DNA of 64,000 bases from a virus (Duplodnaviria > Caudoviricetes): positions 32,001 through 96,000 of the IMG/VR virus record IMGVR_UViG_3300033073_001153; one strand, 5' to 3'. Shown here piece by piece: positions 19,243 to 63,996 of this stretch. How positions within the stretch are numbered: position 1 is the stretch's first letter; each line of letters opens with the position of its first letter. The position numbers were made by a program, and so were the translations under genes. Below the pieces are notes generated by a model, which was not told where the DNA came from, ran no database searches, and saw nothing but the letters and a program-made list of their open reading frames with translations.

Positions 19243-22200
19243 ATGGCAGAAATTAATGGATCTACATCCTTTAGACAAGAATTGATGAATTATATTTCAT
19301 CTAAACTTCCGTATTCAGGAATTGATACCACTCAAATGGTTCAAAATTTAAATCCAAAGTATCGTTACTTCGAAGATACTGGAATGAAACGAGCAGAAGT
19401 TCTGTCACGTCATTCGGTTTCGCAAAATTTTGATTTTAATAACGAAACAGTAGGAACTGTATCATCAGATAAAAGATACAGTGAAGTGATGTATGCCAAC
19501 ATCCAAAAGGATAAATTGGCTCGTGTTAAAGATTATCGAATTATGGCAGCTTTCTCAGAAGTTGCAAACGCACTAGATGAAATTTGTGATGAAGTTATTA
19601 ATACAGATTCTCATACAAGTAGTTGTTTAAAATTAAAATACAGAAATATAAATCTTTCGGATTTCCAAAAAGAAACCATCGAAAAAGAGTTTTATAAATA
19701 TACAAATTACTTTGATTTTGAACACAAAGGCTGGAGTTATTTTCGTCAGTTATTAGTAGAAGGAGAGATTTATTGGGAACATATTATTCATAAAGATTAT
19801 GTAGAAGAAGGAGTTTTAGGTGTTGTTCAAGTTCCTACTGAATTAATTGATCCAGTATTTTCTAATGTTCAAAATGTAATGGTTAAAGGATATTTGTATC
19901 GTAAGCCTAAATTTGATCCGAATAATCCATTAAAACAAGTTGGTATTGATTATATCCCAATGGATAAGAATCAAATTACTTATGTACATTCAGATGTATG
20001 GAATGAAAGTAAAACGATGCGTCTTCCATTTTTGGAAAATGCTCGTAGAGCTTATCGTCAGTTGTCGATGATTGAAGATTCGATCATCATTTATCGCTTG
20101 GCTCGTGCTCCAGAACGTTTAGTGTTTAATGTTGACGTTGGTAATATGCCAGCACCAAAAGCAGAAGCATACCTTCGAAAATTAATTACAAATTATTGGT
20201 CTTCTAAAACATATGATCCAGATCAAGCTGGTATTGTACAAAAATTTAAGCCACAATCAATTCTAGATAACTTTTGGTTTGCAAAACGTGCAGGATCAGA
20301 AGGAACAAGTGTAACACAATTGGCTGGGGCATGTTTAGCTATGGATACTAAAGTTCCATTATTGGACGGGAGAACTTTAACTATAAGCGAAATTGAGCAA
20401 GAAATTAAAGAAAATAAGAAGATTTGGGTATACAGCACAAATCCAAAAACGGGTCACGTAGCTCCCGGTTTAGTTACTTGGGCTGGCGTTACTCAAGAAG
20501 AAGCTGAAGTGTATAAACTTACTTTTGATAATGGAAAAGAATTAATTTGTACTCCTGATCACAAATTCCCAATTTTAGGAAAAGGATTTGTAGAAGCAAA
20601 AGATCTAGAAATAGGCGAGAGTATGATACCTTTTTACACTAAGAACGAAAAAATTAGTAAAAAAGCGAATGAATATGAAATGGTATATCAAAATGATACC
20701 AAAACTTGGGAATATACCCACAGAATGGTAGCTAATTTCTTCAAAAATGTTAATGAACATGAGGAAATGACATATTCCGAAAAATATGAGAATCATAAAA
20801 AAACTGTGATTCATCATAAAGATTTCAATCGTTTTAATAATAATCCCGAAAATCTTGCCTATATGAACTTCAAAGATCATATGGCCTATCATATTGGGAA
20901 TGGAGAACATACTAAAATAGTATGGGCGAAGAGAACTGAAGAAGAACGAAGAATTATAGGAGAGAAGCAATCCAATGGAATTAAGGAATATTTCTCTTCA
21001 TTATCTGATCAAGAAAGAGAACACAGAGCAAATATTTCCAGAGAAAATGGAAAATTGGGTCCAATTGCTTTAGGAGAAAAGCTAAAAGATTCTGAATTTA
21101 GAAAAGAATATGGATCAAAGATAAGCAAATCTAATAAAAAAAGATTTGCGGATATGAATCAAGAAGAAAAAAATTCTTATTTTTATAATAGTTATGTAAA
21201 AAACTTACAAAGTGAAAAATATGTAAATAATTTAAAAAAGTTGACAGAAACACAATCTTTGATTTTTGATGATAAAATTTTAAAATTTGTTATTGATCAA
21301 GTTAGTGGAAAAACTACTCACGAAGTAACTAAAGAAGATTTGTGTGATATTATCAACAATAATCCAGAAATTCTTGGTCATTTCTTGAAGTTGAATGAAG
21401 GGAGACATATTAGAAATTGGTGCGGCACTAAGATTTCAGTTACCCATTTTTCACCAATGGTCAAGAGCTTCGGATACAAAACATGGAAACAATTCCGTAA
21501 AGAATGTGAACTATTCAACCATCGTTTAGTTAGTGTTGAAAAACTTCCAAATAAGATTCAAGTAGGTACATTGACGATTGATAACGAAGAAAAATATCAT
21601 GATTATCATACGTTTGCCCTTGATTGTGGGGTATTTACGAAAAATTCGAACCTTGGAGAGCTTAGTGATTTAATGTACTTCGTTAAGAAACTTTATCAAT
21701 CTTTGAAAGTTCCTACTACTCGTTTAGATCCACAAGATGCTTTTCGTGATGGAGCTGACATGCTTCGTGAAGAATTAAAATTTGCACGTTTTATTATTCG
21801 TTTACAAAATATTTTTGCGAGTGGATTAAAGAATGGATTTATTACACATTTACAATTAAAAGGAATGTGGAAAGAATATGAATTAAAAGAAGAGACAATT
21901 CATATTGAATTTAATGTTCCTACAAACTTTTACGAATTGAGAGAAAGTCAAAAGCTAGAACTTAAAGTACAAAACTTTGGTTCGTTAGCATCTAATGAAT
22001 CTATTTCTCCGTCTTTTGCACAAAAGAGATATCTAGGATGGACTGATATTGATATTAAAGCTAATCGTGAATTCTTACGAAAAGATAAAGAATTGCGTTG
22101 GGAGTTGACTCAGATTGAAAATATGGGTCCAAACTGGAAACAAGCCGTAGCTGCTCAAGCAGAAGCAGGAGGTGCCCCCGGTGGTGGAGGAGCACCTCCA

Positions 22201-22365
22201 AGTGGTGGTATGGGAGGAGGAATGGGAGGTGGAGGAGGAATGGGTGGAATGGGAGGAGCACCACCTACACCAGAAGGAGGAGAAGAAGGAGCACCCCCAC
22301 CAGAAGGTGGTACAGAATCTCCACCACCAGCAGAAGGAGCACCGAAAGCAGAACCAGCAGTATAA
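19243..22365 (+). CDS. Portal vertex protein (T4 gp20) with intein
   Basis: EDSIIIYRLARAPERLVFNVDVGNMP..KAE.YL, KLYQSLKVP..RL, REELKFARFI.RLQ; Gly/Pro-rich tail. Confidence 0.95.
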   Translation: MAEINGSTSFRQELMNYISSKLPYSGIDTTQMVQNLNPKYRYFEDTGMKRAEVLSRHSVSQNFDFNNETVGTVSSDKRYSEVMYANIQKDKLARVKDYRIMAAFSEVANALDEICDEVINTDSHTSSCLKLKYRNINLSDFQKETIEKEFYKYTNYFDFEHKGWSYFRQLLVEGEIYWEHIIHKDYVEEGVLGVVQVPTELIDPVFSNVQNVMVKGYLYRKPKFDPNNPLKQVGIDYIPMDKNQITYVHSDVWNESKTMRLPFLENARRAYRQLSMIEDSIIIYRLARAPERLVFNVDVGNMPAPKAEAYLRKLITNYWSSKTYDPDQAGIVQKFKPQSILDNFWFAKRAGSEGTSVTQLAGACLAMDTKVPLLDGRTLTISEIEQEIKENKKIWVYSTNPKTGHVAPGLVTWAGVTQEEAEVYKLTFDNGKELICTPDHKFPILGKGFVEAKDLEIGESMIPFYTKNEKISKKANEYEMVYQNDTKTWEYTHRMVANFFKNVNEHEEMTYSEKYENHKKTVIHHKDFNRFNNNPENLAYMNFKDHMAYHIGNGEHTKIVWAKRTEEERRIIGEKQSNGIKEYFSSLSDQEREHRANISRENGKLGPIALGEKLKDSEFRKEYGSKISKSNKKRFADMNQEEKNSYFYNSYVKNLQSEKYVNNLKKLTETQSLIFDDKILKFVIDQVSGKTTHEVTKEDLCDIINNNPEILGHFLKLNEGRHIRNWCGTKISVTHFSPMVKSFGYKTWKQFRKECELFNHRLVSVEKLPNKIQVGTLTIDNEEKYHDYHTFALDCGVFTKNSNLGELSDLMYFVKKLYQSLKVPTTRLDPQDAFRDGADMLREELKFARFIIRLQNIFASGLKNGFITHLQLKGMWKEYELKEETIHIEFNVPTNFYELRESQKLELKVQNFGSLASNESISPSFAQKRYLGWTDIDIKANREFLRKDKELRWELTQIENMGPNWKQAVAAQAEAGGAPGGGGAPPSGGMGGGMGGGGGMGGMGGAPPTPEGGEEGAPPPEGGTESPPPAEGAPKAEPAV
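20332..21645 (+). mobile_element. Intein (438 aa) with HNH homing endonuclease in the portal gene
   Basis: N-terminal CLAMDTKV, block B CTPDHKF, HNH THRMVA...IHHKDFNRFNNNPENL, C-terminal VFTKN|S. Confidence 0.92.
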
Positions 22366-27423: not shown

Positions 27424-28448
27424 AAAGGAATATCTCTAATAAAGACTGATTCACGAATTGGCTTCTTTCTTATTTTTTTGGCTTTTGGTGCTCCTAATGA
27501 TCTTGCAGGAGATGGAGTAGACATTTCTTGTTCTTTATCCTTAATATGAATTTTTCTTAATTCTGGTTCTGTTATATTTTCGGAACTACTGACTCCATAA
27601 GTTGGATCTGTTCCTTCATAATCATGTCTAGGTTCCAGATCAGTTTTTCCAAAAATAGTATGTTCTCCCTCACCGGGAGCATGAAGAAACACAGCATCTT
27701 CGTAAACATCAGATCCGAATTTTACTTGTTGTCTTGGTTTAGTATGATTATGAAAAAGAAATGGTTTTAATACTAATGCCATTGCTGGATTTGATTTTAA
27801 TGTTTTAATTCTTCCATTTATTTTATCAGAAAATTCTTCATAAGTATCTCTCAATTCTTCTACTTCTCTTTTTCCACCTTCGCTTTTTATTCTTAATACA
27901 GGTTTGGAATTTCTATATACTTGTTGGTATGTATTTTTATCGCTCATAGCTTCATACATAACTATGAGTGCATCTATATATGCTTGTCGAACATTTGAAA
28001 TTTTTTCTGACTTTGCATTCATAGTAAAATATTGAATACAATCTGGAAGTATCCAATAAGGAATTACCAAATCTCCATCTACTTCATTTTGAAAATATTT
28101 GTTATTCGAATATTCTCTCATTAAATTCATTAAATTTTTTTGAGAATTTCTAGGAACTTTAGATCCTTCTCCAGTTAATTGAAGATAATATCCTTCTTCC
28201 ATATCTTCTTGTTTGTATGATTCAAAATTTCTATCTCTAATTTTATCAGATTGTGATGGAGTTAATGCAGTGTTTCTTCCAATAGTTGCTCCATGTGCTT
28301 CTTGAGCATCTGGATTATCTGCTATTGTAGTTTTTTGTCTATAACTTTTACTTCCAATAACATCAGGACGTGGAGTTCCTTTAGGCATCTTTGCTTCATT
28401 TAATGAACGTATGTAGCTTTCAAAAATTTCTACGGAATCTGTAGTCAT
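27420..28448 (-). CDS. Hypothetical protein (candidate internal head protein)
   Basis: Long ORF with D..I(F/W)E.Y...LNE leader. Confidence 0.6.
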   Translation of the reverse strand: MTTDSVEIFESYIRSLNEAKMPKGTPRPDVIGSKSYRQKTTIADNPDAQEAHGATIGRNTALTPSQSDKIRDRNFESYKQEDMEEGYYLQLTGEGSKVPRNSQKNLMNLMREYSNNKYFQNEVDGDLVIPYWILPDCIQYFTMNAKSEKISNVRQAYIDALIVMYEAMSDKNTYQQVYRNSKPVLRIKSEGGKREVEELRDTYEEFSDKINGRIKTLKSNPAMALVLKPFLFHNHTKPRQQVKFGSDVYEDAVFLHAPGEGEHTIFGKTDLEPRHDYEGTDPTYGVSSSENITEPELRKIHIKDKEQEMSTPSPARSLGAPKAKKIRKKPIRESVFIRDIPF

Positions 28449-38491: not shown

Positions 38492-38705
38492 AGCCGTATT
38501 TTATAACTGCGAGCATCCAAAGCTTCTCGTCAACGATTTCAAACTCAGCGTAATCGTCATGACCCATTTCATGGACATTTATAATTTTTAATCCTAATTC
38601 TTCATTGAAAGTTTTTTCCAATTCCATAGAATTGTTATTGAATCTTTGGATTAAAGCTGGTTCATATTGTTTATAAAATGAAAGTACTACTTTATTTTTT
38701 CCCAT
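38481..38705 (-). CDS. Hypothetical protein
   Basis: Short ORF overlapping the thyX end. Confidence 0.55.
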   Translation of the reverse strand: MGKNKVVLSFYKQYEPALIQRFNNNSMELEKTFNEELGLKIINVHEMGHDDYAEFEIVDEKLWMLAVIKYGFTQ

Positions 38706-40789
38706 GCTTCTTCGCTCCAGTTTTGTTTAGATAGAATATTTCGATAAGAACGCCATCCGTCGAAATTATCATGGATTCCAAAATCACAAACAGCAGAATG
38801 TTCGAATGGACTCCAGTGTCCTTCTTTTACTAACATATCATGTAAATTATAATCTTTATCATAATTTACAACTCCATCAAAATTTTTATAAGAAACTCTA
38901 GCTGCTCTTGCTGTAGCGATTTTTAACTTTTGTCGAGTATTTAAACCATCGAGATATTTATCTCCAAAAGGGATATGCCATTCTCCAATTGTTTTTTCTA
39001 CTGGTTTGTTAGATTGATACAATTCTAACATCTTATATGCCAATTCTCTAATTTCTGGTTGAGCTGCTTTATGTGCTCTAAGTTTAAAGAAGTTTTGAAA
39101 TTCTGTAGCAGTTAATAATGTAGTAATATGGAAAAATGGTTCCATAATACGATTAACTACTTGTTTATGTAAACCAAGTTCATTTAATTGTTTTGCATGT
39201 GCAACTGCCGCATCTCTAGCGGAGTTCCAGATCAGCATAGCTTTCATTTTAGTTTCTTCATCTACTTCGTTATCAGCTTGCATTCCTTTTTGATTAGATC
39301 CCCAATGAACAGGAAGTGCCGGATCTGTTAATACATCTTCGATGAATTTAGTTACTGGTATAGCTCTACTATTATGTACTACAACCCCATTCGCAACGAA
39401 ATTATGATAAGGAGCAGCAACTTCTATATCATACGTAGGTTCTTTGCCTACAAATTTAATTGTCTTTATTTTAAAGAATCTAGCTACAAGACTGTTTACT
39501 TTTCCTCTTGGTTTGTTTATATCACTGCATTTTAATTTTAAATTCGAATGTTCTTCTACGAATTTTTCTAAAGGTTTTCCCGCATTATACCAATCTAAAA
39601 ATAATAAATCTAAATTATTAGAATGAATAAATTTATGAATTTCTTTATTAAGAGGTACGATATTATCAATATCGTATTGTTTTTCTTTATTATGCCAACG
39701 TGGATTTATATGATGTAATTCTAAGTTTTGTCCATATCCACTTATTACGCATTTATAATTAAATTTTTCCATAATATTCGAACGAATTTGATTCATCCAT
39801 CTAGTCATTCTGCTATTACCTTCTTTATATTTCAAATGAGAATTTGGTTTAATTCTTCTTTTAGCTGCTTCTCTTACTTTTACTAAAGATGAATCAGGTA
39901 ATGTGTATCGTTTTCCTTTGTTCCAAGTAACAATATTAGCCCATGACCATTTATTACCTTTTAATCCAAATTTAGCGGCAGCTCCTTTTATTCTATCTGT
40001 TGTAGAATTACATAATTCTGCAATCTGCGTAAAGAAAAGCCCTTCTTTTATTTTAGATTCAAGCCAATCTTTATTTTTATAAATAAGATTTTCGTTCTCG
40101 ATCTGAAGTTTTTTGAAGAAAATTCTATTTTTTTCGCAAAAATAGCACAAGCTTTTGTACGATATGTTGTGTTCTTCTGCTATCTGTTTGAGAGTTTTTT
40201 TATGATTATCTCTTTGATCAATAAGATAATCCACATCTAAATTCATACCATTAGTACAAATTTTAAAATTATGATCATCAAAAATTGTGAGACCGTTATT
40301 ATGAGTTACATTAATATCATTTAATGTTTTCCATCCTTCATTAGTAAAAATTCTATGTTCTTTTGTACATTTTAATTTATATCCATTCTCTAATTCTATT
40401 TCGTAGATATCTTTTTCACCACTAAACATACAATCTACTAATTTTGTAGAAATGAATTCTCCGGTGTCTTCATTTAAGCATCTGAGATTCATTTCTTTTA
40501 ATCTATGACGCATAGAACGACCCCATGAGTCTCCGTCTGTCCATTTCTTATAAAGATCTTTTATTTTGATCTTCATGTGCAATGACCTCTTTTTATTTTT
40601 GATCATGCTTGGTTTTTCGATGAAAATTTCAGAATCGCCAGCTAAACAACTAGCTGCATTCCTAGAAAGTGATCTATGTGTAAGTAGTTCAGAATGAATA
40701 AATCTCGGATATGTCAAGACATACGAAGTAATACGCTTTGAAGTATTTTCAGAACAAACCGAATCGGCAATGATTTTAGCTGTGATCAT
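38687..40789 (-). CDS. thyX: Flavin-dependent thymidylate synthase with intein
   Basis: PRFIHSELLTHR.LSRNAAS|SRAIP, LHKQ..NR..EPF, FFKLR....AQPEI, HWSPFEH. Confidence 0.92.
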   Translation of the reverse strand: MITAKIIADSVCSENTSKRITSYVLTYPRFIHSELLTHRSLSRNAASCLAGDSEIFIEKPSMIKNKKRSLHMKIKIKDLYKKWTDGDSWGRSMRHRLKEMNLRCLNEDTGEFISTKLVDCMFSGEKDIYEIELENGYKLKCTKEHRIFTNEGWKTLNDINVTHNNGLTIFDDHNFKICTNGMNLDVDYLIDQRDNHKKTLKQIAEEHNISYKSLCYFCEKNRIFFKKLQIENENLIYKNKDWLESKIKEGLFFTQIAELCNSTTDRIKGAAAKFGLKGNKWSWANIVTWNKGKRYTLPDSSLVKVREAAKRRIKPNSHLKYKEGNSRMTRWMNQIRSNIMEKFNYKCVISGYGQNLELHHINPRWHNKEKQYDIDNIVPLNKEIHKFIHSNNLDLLFLDWYNAGKPLEKFVEEHSNLKLKCSDINKPRGKVNSLVARFFKIKTIKFVGKEPTYDIEVAAPYHNFVANGVVVHNSRAIPVTKFIEDVLTDPALPVHWGSNQKGMQADNEVDEETKMKAMLIWNSARDAAVAHAKQLNELGLHKQVVNRIMEPFFHITTLLTATEFQNFFKLRAHKAAQPEIRELAYKMLELYQSNKPVEKTIGEWHIPFGDKYLDGLNTRQKLKIATARAARVSYKNFDGVVNYDKDYNLHDMLVKEGHWSPFEHSAVCDFGIHDNFDGWRSYRNILSKQNWSEEAWEKIK
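39371..40648 (-). mobile_element. Intein (426 aa) with HNH endonuclease in thyX
   Basis: CLAGDS start, CTKEHRIFT block B, LELHHINP HNH, YDIEV..PYHNFVANGVVVHN|S end. Confidence 0.93.
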
Positions 40790-58472: not shown

Positions 58473-60041
58473 TTACTTGCTTTGACCTTTCAAATACGCC
58501 GCAACGTCCTGCACCTCAACCAAATCCCGCTTGGCGCGGGTTATGGCGACGTAGATCAGATTGTTTTCCTGCACTTTCATCCATTCCTTTTTAGCCCACT
58601 TGCTAGGCATAAAGTCCTCACGTCCAAGCAGGAAGACTCTCTCCCACTCTAAGCCTTTGGACTTGTGAACAGAGCAGAGTGTCAGGAGGTCTTTACGGGT
58701 CGTTTTGTCGTCGGCATTGCTGAACATGCTGTCGATAAGGGACTTGAGGTCATCCACCCTATTCTTTCCCTCAACGTAGCACTTTTCCATGCATGCCCTA
58801 ATGCAATCGACTTTATCCTGAATTACCCCAACAAGTGCGTCGTTCCCTTTGGTTTGTGCTTTCTGAGTCTCACGGTCAAGATAGTCGCTCAGTCGGTTCT
58901 CCAACGCATCCAAGGTTTTAACCTTCCATTTGCCTATCACGTTTAGCAAACCCTGAGCAATGTCCCGTCCCTCAATCCGGCAAGGGATGCCCCTCTTGAT
59001 GAGGGAGAAAGCCGTCCGCATTAGGGGAGCATTAGTCCGACAAAGGATTGCGTCCCGATAGGAAAGATTCAGGGACTCAGGCTTTTCCGCCAAGTCACTG
59101 TAGGGAAGTTGAGTAACGCTTCCGGTCTCGGCATTCGGCGCAGCCTCAATAGTGGGATACCACGTTTGAGCGTGTTTAATCACGCTGGAACTGCACCTAT
59201 AACAAACGGAGAGAGGGAGTTCCACGGCGTTGTGAGCGGCAATGAGATTATCCAAAGCCATTGCATCCGCCCCCGTGAAACCGTAAACGGCTTGCCCCCT
59301 ATCACCCACTTTTAAATGGCGGGTATATTCGTGAGCCAGTGCCTTGCAAACCGCTTGTCTGAGAGGACTTAGGTCTTGGCATTCATCCACAATTACCCAG
59401 TCAAATTTCGGCAACTTATAGTTACGCAAAACTGTCAGGTAAACCATGTCAGAAAAGTCGATTGTCTGACTGTCCTCATTGTTCACTTTCAACGCTTTCT
59501 GAGCAATCTCAATGCACCTATCCATTGAGGCTTCCTCTTCCAACTCAACCTCATGGTGATCCATAAGTCTCTGCCATTGTGAGGACTCGGCAATGGGCCA
59601 GAAAATTCCAGCACCGTCATCTTTGGCTAGTGAAACCAGCTTACTTACTGCACCGGAGTACATTGCGAAGTCCTCTTCTGAGAGGTTATTCTCCAAAATC
59701 ATGCGAACCTTGCGGTTCTCTAACACAATCCGTTTGCCTTTGTTTGCGTTCCGATACGCCCCAAAACAAAGGGCGTGTACGGTGCTACACTCAACGGTGG
59801 TGAGTCCCTCCCGTTTCAGTTTGGAATCCATTTCCAACTGTATTTTCTTATTGAATGCCAACACGATAGCGTTCAACACAACGGACTTACCCTCTTTCGC
59901 AAGGTACTCGACCAGTGCTTTTAAGGTTTGGATAATAACGGTGCTCTTACCGCTACCCGCAACGGCGGACACAACGGCGTTGCCCTTTCCAGTGATTGCC
60001 CAGCTGAACACGGCGGACTGATATTTTGATGGAACGAACAT
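58473..60041 (-). CDS. UvrD/Rep-like SF1 helicase
   Basis: AVAGSGKST, LAFN, VDECQD, VGDRGQAVYGF.GA, YRC, HKSKGLEW, YVAITRA. Confidence 0.93.
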   Translation of the reverse strand: MFVPSKYQSAVFSWAITGKGNAVVSAVAGSGKSTVIIQTLKALVEYLAKEGKSVVLNAIVLAFNKKIQLEMDSKLKREGLTTVECSTVHALCFGAYRNANKGKRIVLENRKVRMILENNLSEEDFAMYSGAVSKLVSLAKDDGAGIFWPIAESSQWQRLMDHHEVELEEEASMDRCIEIAQKALKVNNEDSQTIDFSDMVYLTVLRNYKLPKFDWVIVDECQDLSPLRQAVCKALAHEYTRHLKVGDRGQAVYGFTGADAMALDNLIAAHNAVELPLSVCYRCSSSVIKHAQTWYPTIEAAPNAETGSVTQLPYSDLAEKPESLNLSYRDAILCRTNAPLMRTAFSLIKRGIPCRIEGRDIAQGLLNVIGKWKVKTLDALENRLSDYLDRETQKAQTKGNDALVGVIQDKVDCIRACMEKCYVEGKNRVDDLKSLIDSMFSNADDKTTRKDLLTLCSVHKSKGLEWERVFLLGREDFMPSKWAKKEWMKVQENNLIYVAITRAKRDLVEVQDVAAYLKGQSK

Positions 60042-61885: not shown

Positions 61886-62041
61886 GGGTTTTTATTTATA
61901 TTCTATAAGTTATGCTTATAGAGCATAATGAATATAAGGTATGCTTATAGAGTATAATGAATGTTCTGTATGTTCCATGTGGAACAAAAGAGAACCCCCT
62001 ACACTCCGTAGAATGTAGGGGGTTGGGGGAACCGGACTCTG

Positions 62042-62338: not shown

Positions 62339-62373
62339 AATGTTAGGAGTTGAGGTTTACGCTGACACTATCT

Positions 62374-62402
62374 TTATCGGCAGAGTGTAGGGAATACTTT
62401 AG
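62374..62402 (-). promoter_or_regulatory. Sigma28-like promoter
   Basis: CTAAAG...GCCGATAA (TAAA-N16-GCCGATAA). Confidence 0.65.
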
Positions 62403-62781: not shown

Positions 62782-62829
62782 AAAAAAAGGAACACAAGGT
62801 ACGGTCGGGGGTTGCCGTACCTTGTGTTT
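62782..62829 (-). terminator. Rho-independent terminator
   Basis: AACACAAGGTACGG...CCGTACCTTGTGTT followed by CC-T7. Confidence 0.7.
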
Positions 62830-62841
62830 GTGGGGGAGAGG

Positions 62842-63270
62842 TTAGACCGTTTCCAGATCCATGTTGAGGATCAGATTCGAAGCGGTGAAGGCGGCGGTGT
62901 CCCGCTCCTCTTCGGATTCGGCGGAAGTGAACTTTTCCAGAACTTCCTTGAGGAAATTGTAGTCCTCATTTTCAGAAGTCGGCGCATTTTCGTTCACCTC
63001 GAATTCGGTAAACTCCACTTCGTTCAGGATGTCTTCCGATACCACTTCTGATGCCACTTCTCCTTCGAGAGGGGCAAATGTGCTCTCCAGCTCCGCGACT
63101 AACTTAGACAGGTTGTTGCGGAGCGTCAGGTGATTCCCGACGTGCTTCACCGGAACGCATCCGGCCTTGAGGAGGTTGAACGTGTGCTTCTTTGACTCCT
63201 TTTCATAGGAGGAAACGATTTGAATGTCGCCAATGGAGAGAGTGCCGTTTTCGTTTTTGGTGATGCTCAT
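62842..63270 (-). CDS. Acidic hypothetical early protein
   Basis: Preceded by the promoter/T-loop hairpin cassette. Confidence 0.7.
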   Translation of the reverse strand: MSITKNENGTLSIGDIQIVSSYEKESKKHTFNLLKAGCVPVKHVGNHLTLRNNLSKLVAELESTFAPLEGEVASEVVSEDILNEVEFTEFEVNENAPTSENEDYNFLKEVLEKFTSAESEEERDTAAFTASNLILNMDLETV

Positions 63271-63299
63271 ATGATTTTTTGTTTTTGGGTTTCTGAGTT

Positions 63300-63364
63300 G
63301 TGAACCGGAAGGGATCGAACCTTCCGGTATTATTGTAGTCGGCAGAGTGTAGAGGATTCTTTAG
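63300..63364 (-). promoter_or_regulatory. Sigma28-like promoter plus T-loop hairpin cassette 1
   Basis: CTAAAG..GCCGACTA-N7-ACCGGAAGG-TTCGATC-CCTTCCGGT-TCAC. Confidence 0.7.
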
Positions 63365-63371
63365 AATTTTT

Positions 63372-63668
63372 TTAGACTAGTTCTGCTTCTTCCTCTGATT
63401 CTTCGTAGTAGTGTTTGGCAATTTCTTCGAAGTCAACCTCATTCAAGTACTCGTCAACAATTTCACGAACGAAGCCACTTGCCTTGAGGTTGTCAAGCTC
63501 AAGCTCAAAAACAACGTTCTCGAATGCTTCTGCCATGTGTTTGACGCTGTTAAACACTATTCCGTGTTTTTTCTCTTCGGCCATGCTGTGGAAAATTTCT
63601 TCGAATCGGGAATAGATTACCCACGTTTGTTTGTTCGACCATCCGTTGTATGTAGTAGGAGCGTTCAT
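63372..63668 (-). CDS. Acidic hypothetical early protein
   Basis: YNGWSN..TW and V(D/N)F.EIA motifs common in phage early proteins. Confidence 0.7.
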   Translation of the reverse strand: MNAPTTYNGWSNKQTWVIYSRFEEIFHSMAEEKKHGIVFNSVKHMAEAFENVVFELELDNLKASGFVREIVDEYLNEVDFEEIAKHYYEESEEEAELV

Positions 63669-63691
63669 GTTATTTTTGGTTTGGGGTTCCG

Positions 63692-63756
63692 GTGAACCGG
63701 AAGGGATCGAACCTTCCGGTATTATTGTAGTCGGTTGTTTCTCGGCGGGACTTTAG
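63692..63756 (-). promoter_or_regulatory. Sigma28-like promoter plus T-loop hairpin cassette 2
   Basis: CTAAAG..ACCGACTA-N7-identical hairpin. Confidence 0.7.
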
Positions 63757-63911
63757 AACTTTTTTGTAGAACCTGACATTTCCAGAAGAACTAGTGCCAA
63801 TCGCTCGGCAATTTGTTTCTTGACTTCATCAGTGATTCCTTCCTCAAGCGATACGCCTAATGCCCGTGCCATATCGACAACTTGCTCTTCAGTGAATTTT
63901 TCGGTTTCCAT
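63753..63911 (-). CDS. 52-aa hypothetical early protein (not in ORF track)
   Basis: METEKFTEEQVVDMARALGVSLEEGITDEVKKQIAERLALVLLEMSGSTKKF, between two cassettes. Confidence 0.65.
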   Translation of the reverse strand: METEKFTEEQVVDMARALGVSLEEGITDEVKKQIAERLALVLLEMSGSTKKF

Positions 63912-63932
63912 AATGTTCTAAGGTTTCTGAGT

Positions 63933-63996
63933 GTGAACCGGAAGGGATCGAACCTTCCGGTATTATACTAATCGGTCAGGAATACTTTTTCTTTAG
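63933..63996 (-). promoter_or_regulatory. Sigma28-like promoter plus T-loop hairpin cassette 3
   Basis: CTAAAG..ACCGATTA (N15 spacer)-N7-identical hairpin. Confidence 0.7.

Follow-up and report, generated by a model that had tools for sequence, protein, structure and literature searches.

A 25-nucleotide hairpin sequence that recurs in the genome of an uncultured phage appears to form the extreme 5' end of a group of phage mRNAs, where it would most likely protect these transcripts from decay. The DNA under study, hereafter called the window, is a stretch of 64,000 nucleotides corresponding to bases 32001-96000 of a 242,607-bp IMG/VR virus record (IMGVR_UViG_3300033073_001153, genome G000). 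Three identical copies of the hairpin lie on its minus strand, each placed directly after a promoter motif of the sigma-28 type and shortly before a small open reading frame (ORF). The element is repeated, has the potential to fold, holds a fixed register with its promoter and is conserved in related genomes, and the genes that follow it have been shuffled. In our estimate there is an even chance that the element is a 5'-terminal RNA stem-loop that protects mRNA and that travels as part of a mobile promoter-leader cassette. PeSL-type cassettes (named for promoter-early stem-loops) and 5' stabilizer hairpins are both known already, and no new category is claimed here.

The repeat is longer than the hairpin itself. 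The 29-nucleotide sequence ACCGGAAGGTTCGATCCCTTCCGGTTCAC has three exact matches (63300-63328, 63692-63720 and 63933-63961), all of them on the minus strand, where none is expected in 100 shuffles of the sequence. The original prediction had reported three such copies; they are indeed present, and the coordinates it gave agree with those of the hairpins. Each contains a 9-bp stem closed by the 7-nucleotide loop TTCGATC. The copies in the window fold at -14 to -15 kcal/mol (-14.4 kcal/mol for the first, which forms an isolated hairpin in its leader), and the remainder of each leader stays open. The 3' flank of the stem on the sense strand is TCAC, without a U-tract. A fourth copy, with the same stem and the loop TTCCAGT, is located 238 nucleotides past the end of the window (L004 8199-8223, approximately window 64199-64223), and a search of the 242.6-kb record revealed no copy beyond these four. 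No RNA run containing this phage turned up among the public runs, and the DNA contigs that were examined break at the repeat during assembly and contributed no extra hairpin variants.

Every known copy of the hairpin is preceded by the promoter motif TAAAG-N15/16-CCGAY. In the stretch from genome position 94,400 to 119,500, approximately 24 genes on the minus strand are headed by this motif as CTAAAG-N15/16-CCGAY, and promoters of this class also occur in L032-L034 and L038-L048. The phage promoters, with a -35 element of TAAAG(TTT), a gap of 11-12 nucleotides and a -10 element of (G)CCGAYWA, match in both sequence and spacing the sigma-28 consensus TAAAGTTT-n11-GCCGATAA, for which the aer promoter provides a transcription start 6 bp past the -10 octamer (PMC2859248). 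Thus, the resemblance to sigma-28 (FliA) flagellar promoters extends over the -35 element, the gap, the -10 element and the distance to the predicted start. The two systems differ in that the phage motif drives roughly two dozen small phage genes, many of which would be leaderless, and in that the sigma factor encoded by the phage is of the ECF type rather than the FliA type. Sigma-70-like sites are no more frequent in the region than in shuffled sequence.

The register between promoter and hairpin was defined by a survey of 50 promoters of this class from G000 and its 236-kb relative G001, with positions counted from the first C of CCGA. An ATG is found exactly at position 14 in 16 of the 50, and this fixed placement implies that transcription starts there and yields leaderless mRNAs. 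Among the 36 hairpin copies collected from related genomes, the first base of the hairpin falls at position 14 in 23 copies, at position 15 in 12, and at position 20 in a single copy that carries a 5-nucleotide duplication. Because the leaderless ATGs and the hairpin starts share the same promoter register, the hairpin probably constitutes the 5' end of the transcript, a placement that had been proposed earlier and that is well supported by comparison. Provided that the start is indeed position 14, the hairpin would lie within approximately 0-4 nucleotides of the transcript 5' end. For the three copies in the window, the first A is 15 nucleotides from the first C of CCGA, which equals the originally described distance of 7 nucleotides past the -10 octamer. 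Other promoters of the class are followed by ACCATG or AGCATG, which correspond to 3-nucleotide leaders.

The 36 copies derive from 15 related genomes or contigs. An IMG/VR locus search with either the 142-amino-acid protein encoded after the first hairpin (P0001) or the neighboring helicase found no close relatives. The relatives were instead collected by DNA pattern scans, which provided G001 (from IMG/VR) and two metagenome contigs, and from eleven contigs that carry homologs of P0001. These homologs number 55, all metagenomic, with 52-86% protein identity, and the neighboring gene is 68-81% identical in DNA. A loose version of the metagenome pattern mostly retrieved unrelated GC-rich terminators or coding sequence, and these matches were discarded, as were the unrelated matches L006 and L007.

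The 36 copies comprise only 14 distinct hairpin sequences. Seven of the nine stem pairs are invariant, including the closing pair G9-C17. Pair 4:22 occurs as G-C, G-U or A-U and never as A-C, and two copies have a G-A mismatch at pair 5:21. The variants tested all fold into the same type of isolated hairpin, at -12 to -15 kcal/mol, with the rest of the leader open. In the loop, 35 of 36 copies have U, C and A at positions 1, 3 and 5, and 33 have U2; all four bases occur at position 4, and variation is also seen at positions 6 and 7. At position 4 a purine is present only in the loops TTCGATC and TCCAATC, and most copies have C or T there.

Different genes follow these units. In the window's genome, four cassettes form a tandem array that has no internal terminators; they precede ORFs of 64, 52, 98 and 142 amino acids that are mutually unrelated, three of the four being acidic (acidic to basic residues are 11 to 7 for the 52-residue product, 22 to 8 for the 98-residue product and 28 to 11 for the 142-residue product). 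The end of the hairpin is separated from the ATG of the latter three ORFs by 25-33 nucleotides, in agreement with the 25-35 nucleotides ahead of small acidic ORFs that had been given previously. In each of the 15 genomes or contigs that were read, a hairpin precedes the P0001-family gene, and at least eleven gene families are led by a hairpin. One promoter (spacer AAAAAGTATTCCTGA) overlaps the end of the 64-amino-acid gene; with its hairpin, it precedes four different genes in G000, L039, L040 and L046. Conversely, at least eight promoter spacers and five loops are found upstream of the P0001-family gene, and a gene whose product begins MKITLVKSN has a hairpin in L021, L040 and L043 and none in G000. 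Variants of the arms and the loop occur in nearly all combinations. Since the same promoter-hairpin unit stands ahead of different genes, the hairpin marks a junction of modular exchange. The proposal that the cassettes are recombination points, made when the repeat was first noticed, is therefore well supported by these comparisons.

Similar arrangements have been described in other T4-like phages. The PeSLs of RB49 and phi1, T4 and PST, and KVP40 and nt-1 are junctions of modular exchange (Arbiol et al. 2010, PMC2839356; Comeau et al. 2014, PMC4122927), and their stem-loops act as terminators, with one RB49 crossover located inside the loop of a PeSL stem-loop (PMC2839356). Like these, the present element is an intergenic cassette that recurs in a T4-like genome and joins a promoter to a stable stem-loop, placed ahead of small ORFan genes in a plastic region and at the junctions of insertions, deletions and replacements between relatives. 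However, PeSL promoters are sigma-70-like or Mot-type rather than sigma-28-type, and PeSL leaders have a Shine-Dalgarno sequence, whereas the phage hairpin leaders do not. The stem-loop of a PeSL also lies upstream of or inside the promoter and terminates transcription, whereas the hairpin described here begins 6-7 nucleotides past the -10 element, has no sense-strand U-tract and would itself be transcribed. The hairpin cassette is thus related in kind to PeSLs without being a PeSL by definition.

Protection from decay is the most economical reading of a hairpin in this position. Stem-loops at the 5' terminus reportedly stabilize bacterial mRNAs (Emory et al. 1992; Bouvet and Belasco 1992), and the leader hairpins of Bacillus subtilis aprE and ermC are further 5' stabilizers. 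The 5' hairpins of Escherichia coli ompA and papA share with the phage element a stable hairpin at the extreme 5' end and an open leader after it, but these serve single genes and vary in sequence, whereas the phage module is repeated, mobile and conserved in sequence, and has a T-loop-like loop. In the proposed mechanism, the element would be the first 25 nucleotides of the transcripts from a subset of the clade's sigma-28-type promoters. The RNA would fold into a 9-bp stem with a 7-nucleotide loop of the T-loop type, leaving none or almost none of the 5' nucleotides unpaired, and would continue into an unstructured A/C-rich leader of 22-40 nucleotides that lacks a Shine-Dalgarno sequence. 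Such a stem-loop would most likely shield the 5' end from 5'-end-dependent decay, including RppH-type pyrophosphate removal, 5'-sensing RNase E/G and 5' exonucleases, and a higher yield of small, mostly acidic proteins would be the result. B. subtilis RppH requires at least two unpaired 5' nucleotides (PMC3997798). The promoter, the hairpin and the start of the leader form one conserved cassette that also acts as a homology patch for gene exchange between phages. Leaders with the hairpin are 47-65 nucleotides long versus 23-44 nucleotides for unstructured leaders, and thus the hairpin looks like a 5' module added to an ordinary leader.

Other hairpins also occur at or near this position. A second, unrelated family, AGCGRTAGCAATGAAGCTYYCGYT (AGCGRTAGC...), occupies position 14 or 15 after the same promoter class at nine loci, and it shows a bulge and G-U variants of three kinds. 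Two orthologous long leaders carry a third hairpin, CCAG(T)...CTGG, at +3. The use of the +1 position by unrelated hairpins, the asymmetric conservation of the loop and the G-U pairs in mixed arms all favor a role at the level of RNA. Looser AGCG-type hairpins were noticed at L042 2296 and L045 20, and hairpins of this type were not seen in the window's own genome.

Certain observations weigh against a simple protective stem-loop. Evidence for covariation is weak: only one pair covaries, and its score is reached in 64 of 500 column shuffles. Seven invariant pairs of nine, along with three fixed loop positions, represent more constraint than a generic stabilizer needs. Conserved arms, a more variable center and one loop inversion that looks neutral would also fit a palindromic DNA site. 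Furthermore, most promoters of this class have no hairpin, and both the start site and the transcript itself are predictions made from sequence. A terminator-like hairpin family of the same phage clade provides a useful control for the first of these points. This family covaries clearly, with none of 500 shuffles reaching its score, and so the divergence among the genomes is sufficient for covariation to be detected; the 5' hairpin simply changes little. The same control cautions against reading too much into invariance, because it also keeps 9 of its 14 pairs fixed, and the argument that stem invariance proves a sequence-specific reader was dropped for this reason.

The loop invites comparison with the T arm of tRNAs, and the original prediction had described it as a canonical T arm with no other tRNA arms nearby. 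The latter part holds, since ARAGORN finds no tRNA in the window and a search of the region against Rfam, at E values up to 10, returns no relevant family and no tRNA or tRNA-like match at the hairpins. The phage hairpin differs from a true T arm in having no D-loop partner, acceptor or CCA end, and the two tRNAs of the phage carry T arms that differ from it. An alternative account, which we find unlikely, is that the hairpin is a T-arm mimic read by host TruB or TrmA, by another elbow or T-loop binder, or by a dedicated phage RNA-binding protein, and that this reader controls stability or translation. In a cap-like version of the same idea, which must also be considered improbable, a UUCNANN loop with G-C closure would be recognized and the transcript would be modified or coated, thereby setting its stability or its translation independent of a Shine-Dalgarno sequence; if true, this would be a bacterial-virus analog of the 5' cap built from a tRNA module. 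The closing pair would correspond to G53-C61. Given a loop conserved at positions 1, 3 and 5 and variable at 4, 6 and 7, the T-arm consensus GUUCNANNC, which is also the consensus for TruB/Pus4, accommodates 33 of the 36 stem-loops. By our own count, the three N positions account for at least 7 of approximately 8 inferred loop changes, for which the chance probability is about 0.01. The T-loop motif is defined by a reverse-Hoogsteen pair between U1 and A5 (U54-A58) (PMC4810234), and judged by its sequence the hairpin has the 7-nucleotide loop, the G-C closure and a U1 and A5 that could form this pair. In vitro, TruB modifies stem-loops that carry the consensus on stems of 3-12 bp, yet it binds isolated stem-loops weakly, and bacterial TruB is said to act on tRNAs only (PMC13492117). 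Among the exceptions to the consensus, two copies with the loop TCCAATC have C at the U55 position, and one copy, L042 3116-3140, has at the same promoter position the loop GCTGGAA, which is the exact reverse complement of the common TTCCAGC between unchanged arms. Most copies have a pyrimidine at the position equivalent to 57, where tRNAs keep a purine. In addition, the stem is 9 bp long rather than the 5 bp of a T arm or the 12 bp of a minihelix, and the AGCG hairpins fill the same position without a T-loop. The T-arm resemblance is thus genuine at the level of a consensus and is not strict, and it may be due either to a stable T-loop fold or to recognition by a T-arm reader. Processing by RNase P, by CCA-adding enzymes or in the manner of a minihelix was judged unlikely on general grounds, given the 9-bp rather than 12-bp stem and the missing CCA.

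Other alternatives assign the element a function in DNA or in termination. It is quite unlikely, in our view, that a dimeric protein bound to the 9-bp inverted repeat, with its 7-bp spacing, uses positions +1 to +25 as an operator to repress or activate some of the promoters. Of the 72 half-sites, all but two mismatched arms fit ACCRGAAGG, the center varies and was inverted in L042 with the arms intact, and the element is confined to some promoters and overlaps +1. Sites that overlap +1 are typical of repressors. However, no candidate repressor was identified, a symmetric dimer leaves the asymmetric conservation of T1, C3 and A5 unexplained, and mixed arms show only the sense-strand G.T combination and never A.C, although this last argument is weak with only about 1.4 to 2.9 A.C cases expected. 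Most telling are the unrelated, non-palindromic hairpins in the same register at sister promoters, whose bulge and G-U variants do not fit a symmetric DNA site. We regard as distinctly improbable the notion that the hairpin is kept solely as a recombination patch, meaning a homology or cruciform-prone site for cassette exchange with no role in RNA. Exchange would explain why the genes after identical units, and the spacers before one gene, differ among genomes, and why nearly every combination of loop and arm variants is found; the L042 inversion is the expected product of exchange between inverted arms; and both the RB49 crossover within a PeSL loop (PMC2839356) and the breaks of assembly graphs at the repeat fit such a role. 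What exchange does not explain is the fixed register to the transcription start, the missing A.C combinations, the asymmetric loop conservation or the two other hairpin families at the same +1. Less probable still is an attenuator or terminator function like that of classical PeSLs (PMC2839356), by which the hairpin would halt or reduce transcription that arrives from the upstream cassette or runs antisense. Because the tandem cassettes have no terminators between them, read-through transcripts would contain the hairpins internally. Read on the opposite strand, the hairpin has ATTATTGTAG after it and is flagged as terminator-like by a simple scan. Nevertheless, the sense strand with its TCAC flank is not called by the scan, genuine terminators of the region combine stems of 12-14 bp with T-runs, the region has no plus-strand genes to terminate, and the hairpin comes after rather than before the promoter.

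If the hairpin is a 5'-terminal protective stem-loop, the small-gene units of this clade would be assembled from three interchangeable parts. The first would be a sigma-28-type promoter and the last a conserved terminator, and between them the 5' end could be a leaderless AUG, an open leader or a hairpin cap. The mobile-cassette concept developed for PeSLs would then extend to a deep-branching T4-like lineage, to another sigma class and to a stem-loop borne by the mRNA instead of the terminator. For hosts that do without Shine-Dalgarno sequences, the hairpin cassette might also supply a natural 5' expression module that is compact and portable. Moreover, the pattern of loop conservation allows one to test cleanly whether T-arm enzymes of bacteria act on mRNAs.

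The coordinates of the array and of related features are collected in Table 1.

Table 1. Promoters, hairpins, leaders, ORFs and terminators of the cassette array, with AGCG-type hairpins of relatives. Positions refer to the window unless a locus is named.
Feature	Position	Strand	Remarks
Sigma-28-type promoter 1	63335..63364	-	CTAAAG, 16-nt spacer, CCGACTAC; motif scan
Hairpin copy 1, 25 nt	63304..63328	-	9-bp stem ACCGGAAGG/CCTTCCGGT, 7-nt loop TTCGATC; precedes 142-aa ORF, at predicted +1/+2 of its transcript; exact match
A/C-rich leader without Shine-Dalgarno, hairpin 1 to ATG	63271..63303	-	Contains box CTCAGAAAC, which recurs in most copies
142-aa acidic ORF (P0001)	62842..63270	-	55 metagenomic homologs
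Intrinsic-terminator-like hairpin	62782..62826	-	12-bp stem then T-run; closes array 3' of 142-aa ORF; read from sequence
Sigma-28-type promoter 2	63727..63756	-	CTAAAG, 16-nt spacer, CCGACTAC; motif scan
Hairpin copy 2	63696..63720	-	Identical sequence; precedes 98-aa ORF
98-aa acidic ORF (P0002)	63372..63668	-	Weak sub-threshold DUF7249 match
Sigma-28-type promoter 3	63968..63996	-	CTAAAG, 15-nt spacer, CCGATTAG; overlaps 3' end of upstream 64-aa gene
Hairpin copy 3	63937..63961	-	Identical sequence; precedes 52-aa ORF
52-aa ORF (P0003)	63753..63911	-
Same-class promoter without hairpin	62373..62402	-	Predicted transcript begins TGTCAGCG; unstructured leader
Terminator-like hairpin family member	61993..62024	-	14-bp stem; 3' of genes, same phage clade
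AGCG-family hairpins, relatives	L021 2208-2231, L038 4108-4131, L039 4540-4563, L040 4386-4409
AGCG-family hairpins, relatives (continued)	L041 3020-3043, L044 2303-2326 and 2859-2882, L047 633-656

The cassettes lie in an unusual part of an unusual phage genome. Among the proteins encoded by the record are a major capsid protein of the Gp23 type, a T4-type portal protein that contains an intein, ribonucleotide reductase and ThyX. A comparison with isolated phages found no similar DNA, and the capsid protein is at most approximately 32% identical to that of any isolated phage; the genome therefore represents a deep-branching, uncultured T4-like phage. Its G+C content is about 30%, and the hairpin cassettes are enclosed by an island of about 47% G+C at window positions 57,700-65,000. 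The order of the 142-amino-acid gene and then the helicase gene is kept in relatives, and thus the island is not an assembly chimera. The helicase in the island is UvrD-like and is encoded at 58473-60041 on the minus strand.

A two-domain, ECF-type sigma factor of 169 amino acids is encoded at genome positions 151,769-152,278 on the minus strand (L035 1225-1734); its best NCBIfam match is a Bacteroidetes-type subfamily, with a score below the model cut-off. A weak gp55-like match is located at genome positions 27,799-27,951. The ECF-type sigma might read the promoters of this class, and both it and the gp55-like match may bear on which sigma does so. The description of the downstream genes as early is an assumption.

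The product of the 142-amino-acid ORF has no match in Pfam or PHROGs, and its AlphaFold model (pLDDT 74) has no match in the PDB at E <= 0.001. The model predicts four beta-strands and a helix, then an acidic linker that is disordered, and a C-terminal part that is helical. Its resemblances to nucleic-acid-binding folds of the PUR, Sub1 and SRP9/14 types are weak and non-significant.

Some additional repeated elements and insertions were encountered in these genomes. Members of the terminator family, in which AAYCCYCTACATTCTNNGGAGTGTRGRGGRTT is followed by CTCTTTTGTTCCACATGGAA, lie 3' of different genes, also at genome positions 92,540 and 92,172 and in many relatives, and a second type of terminator hairpin has the loop CAATNCGG. 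Intein-splicing domains are predicted in the T4-type portal gene (19243-22365, plus strand) and in the ThyX gene (38687-40789, minus strand), and the portal intein additionally matches an HNH endonuclease. Finally, an intergenic element of approximately 45-85 nucleotides (...AGACCCTCCC...CTATTAGTACAAG...) is repeated in several copies per genome, as seen at L004 9116-9300 (approximately window 65,116-65,300) and in L021, L023 and G001.

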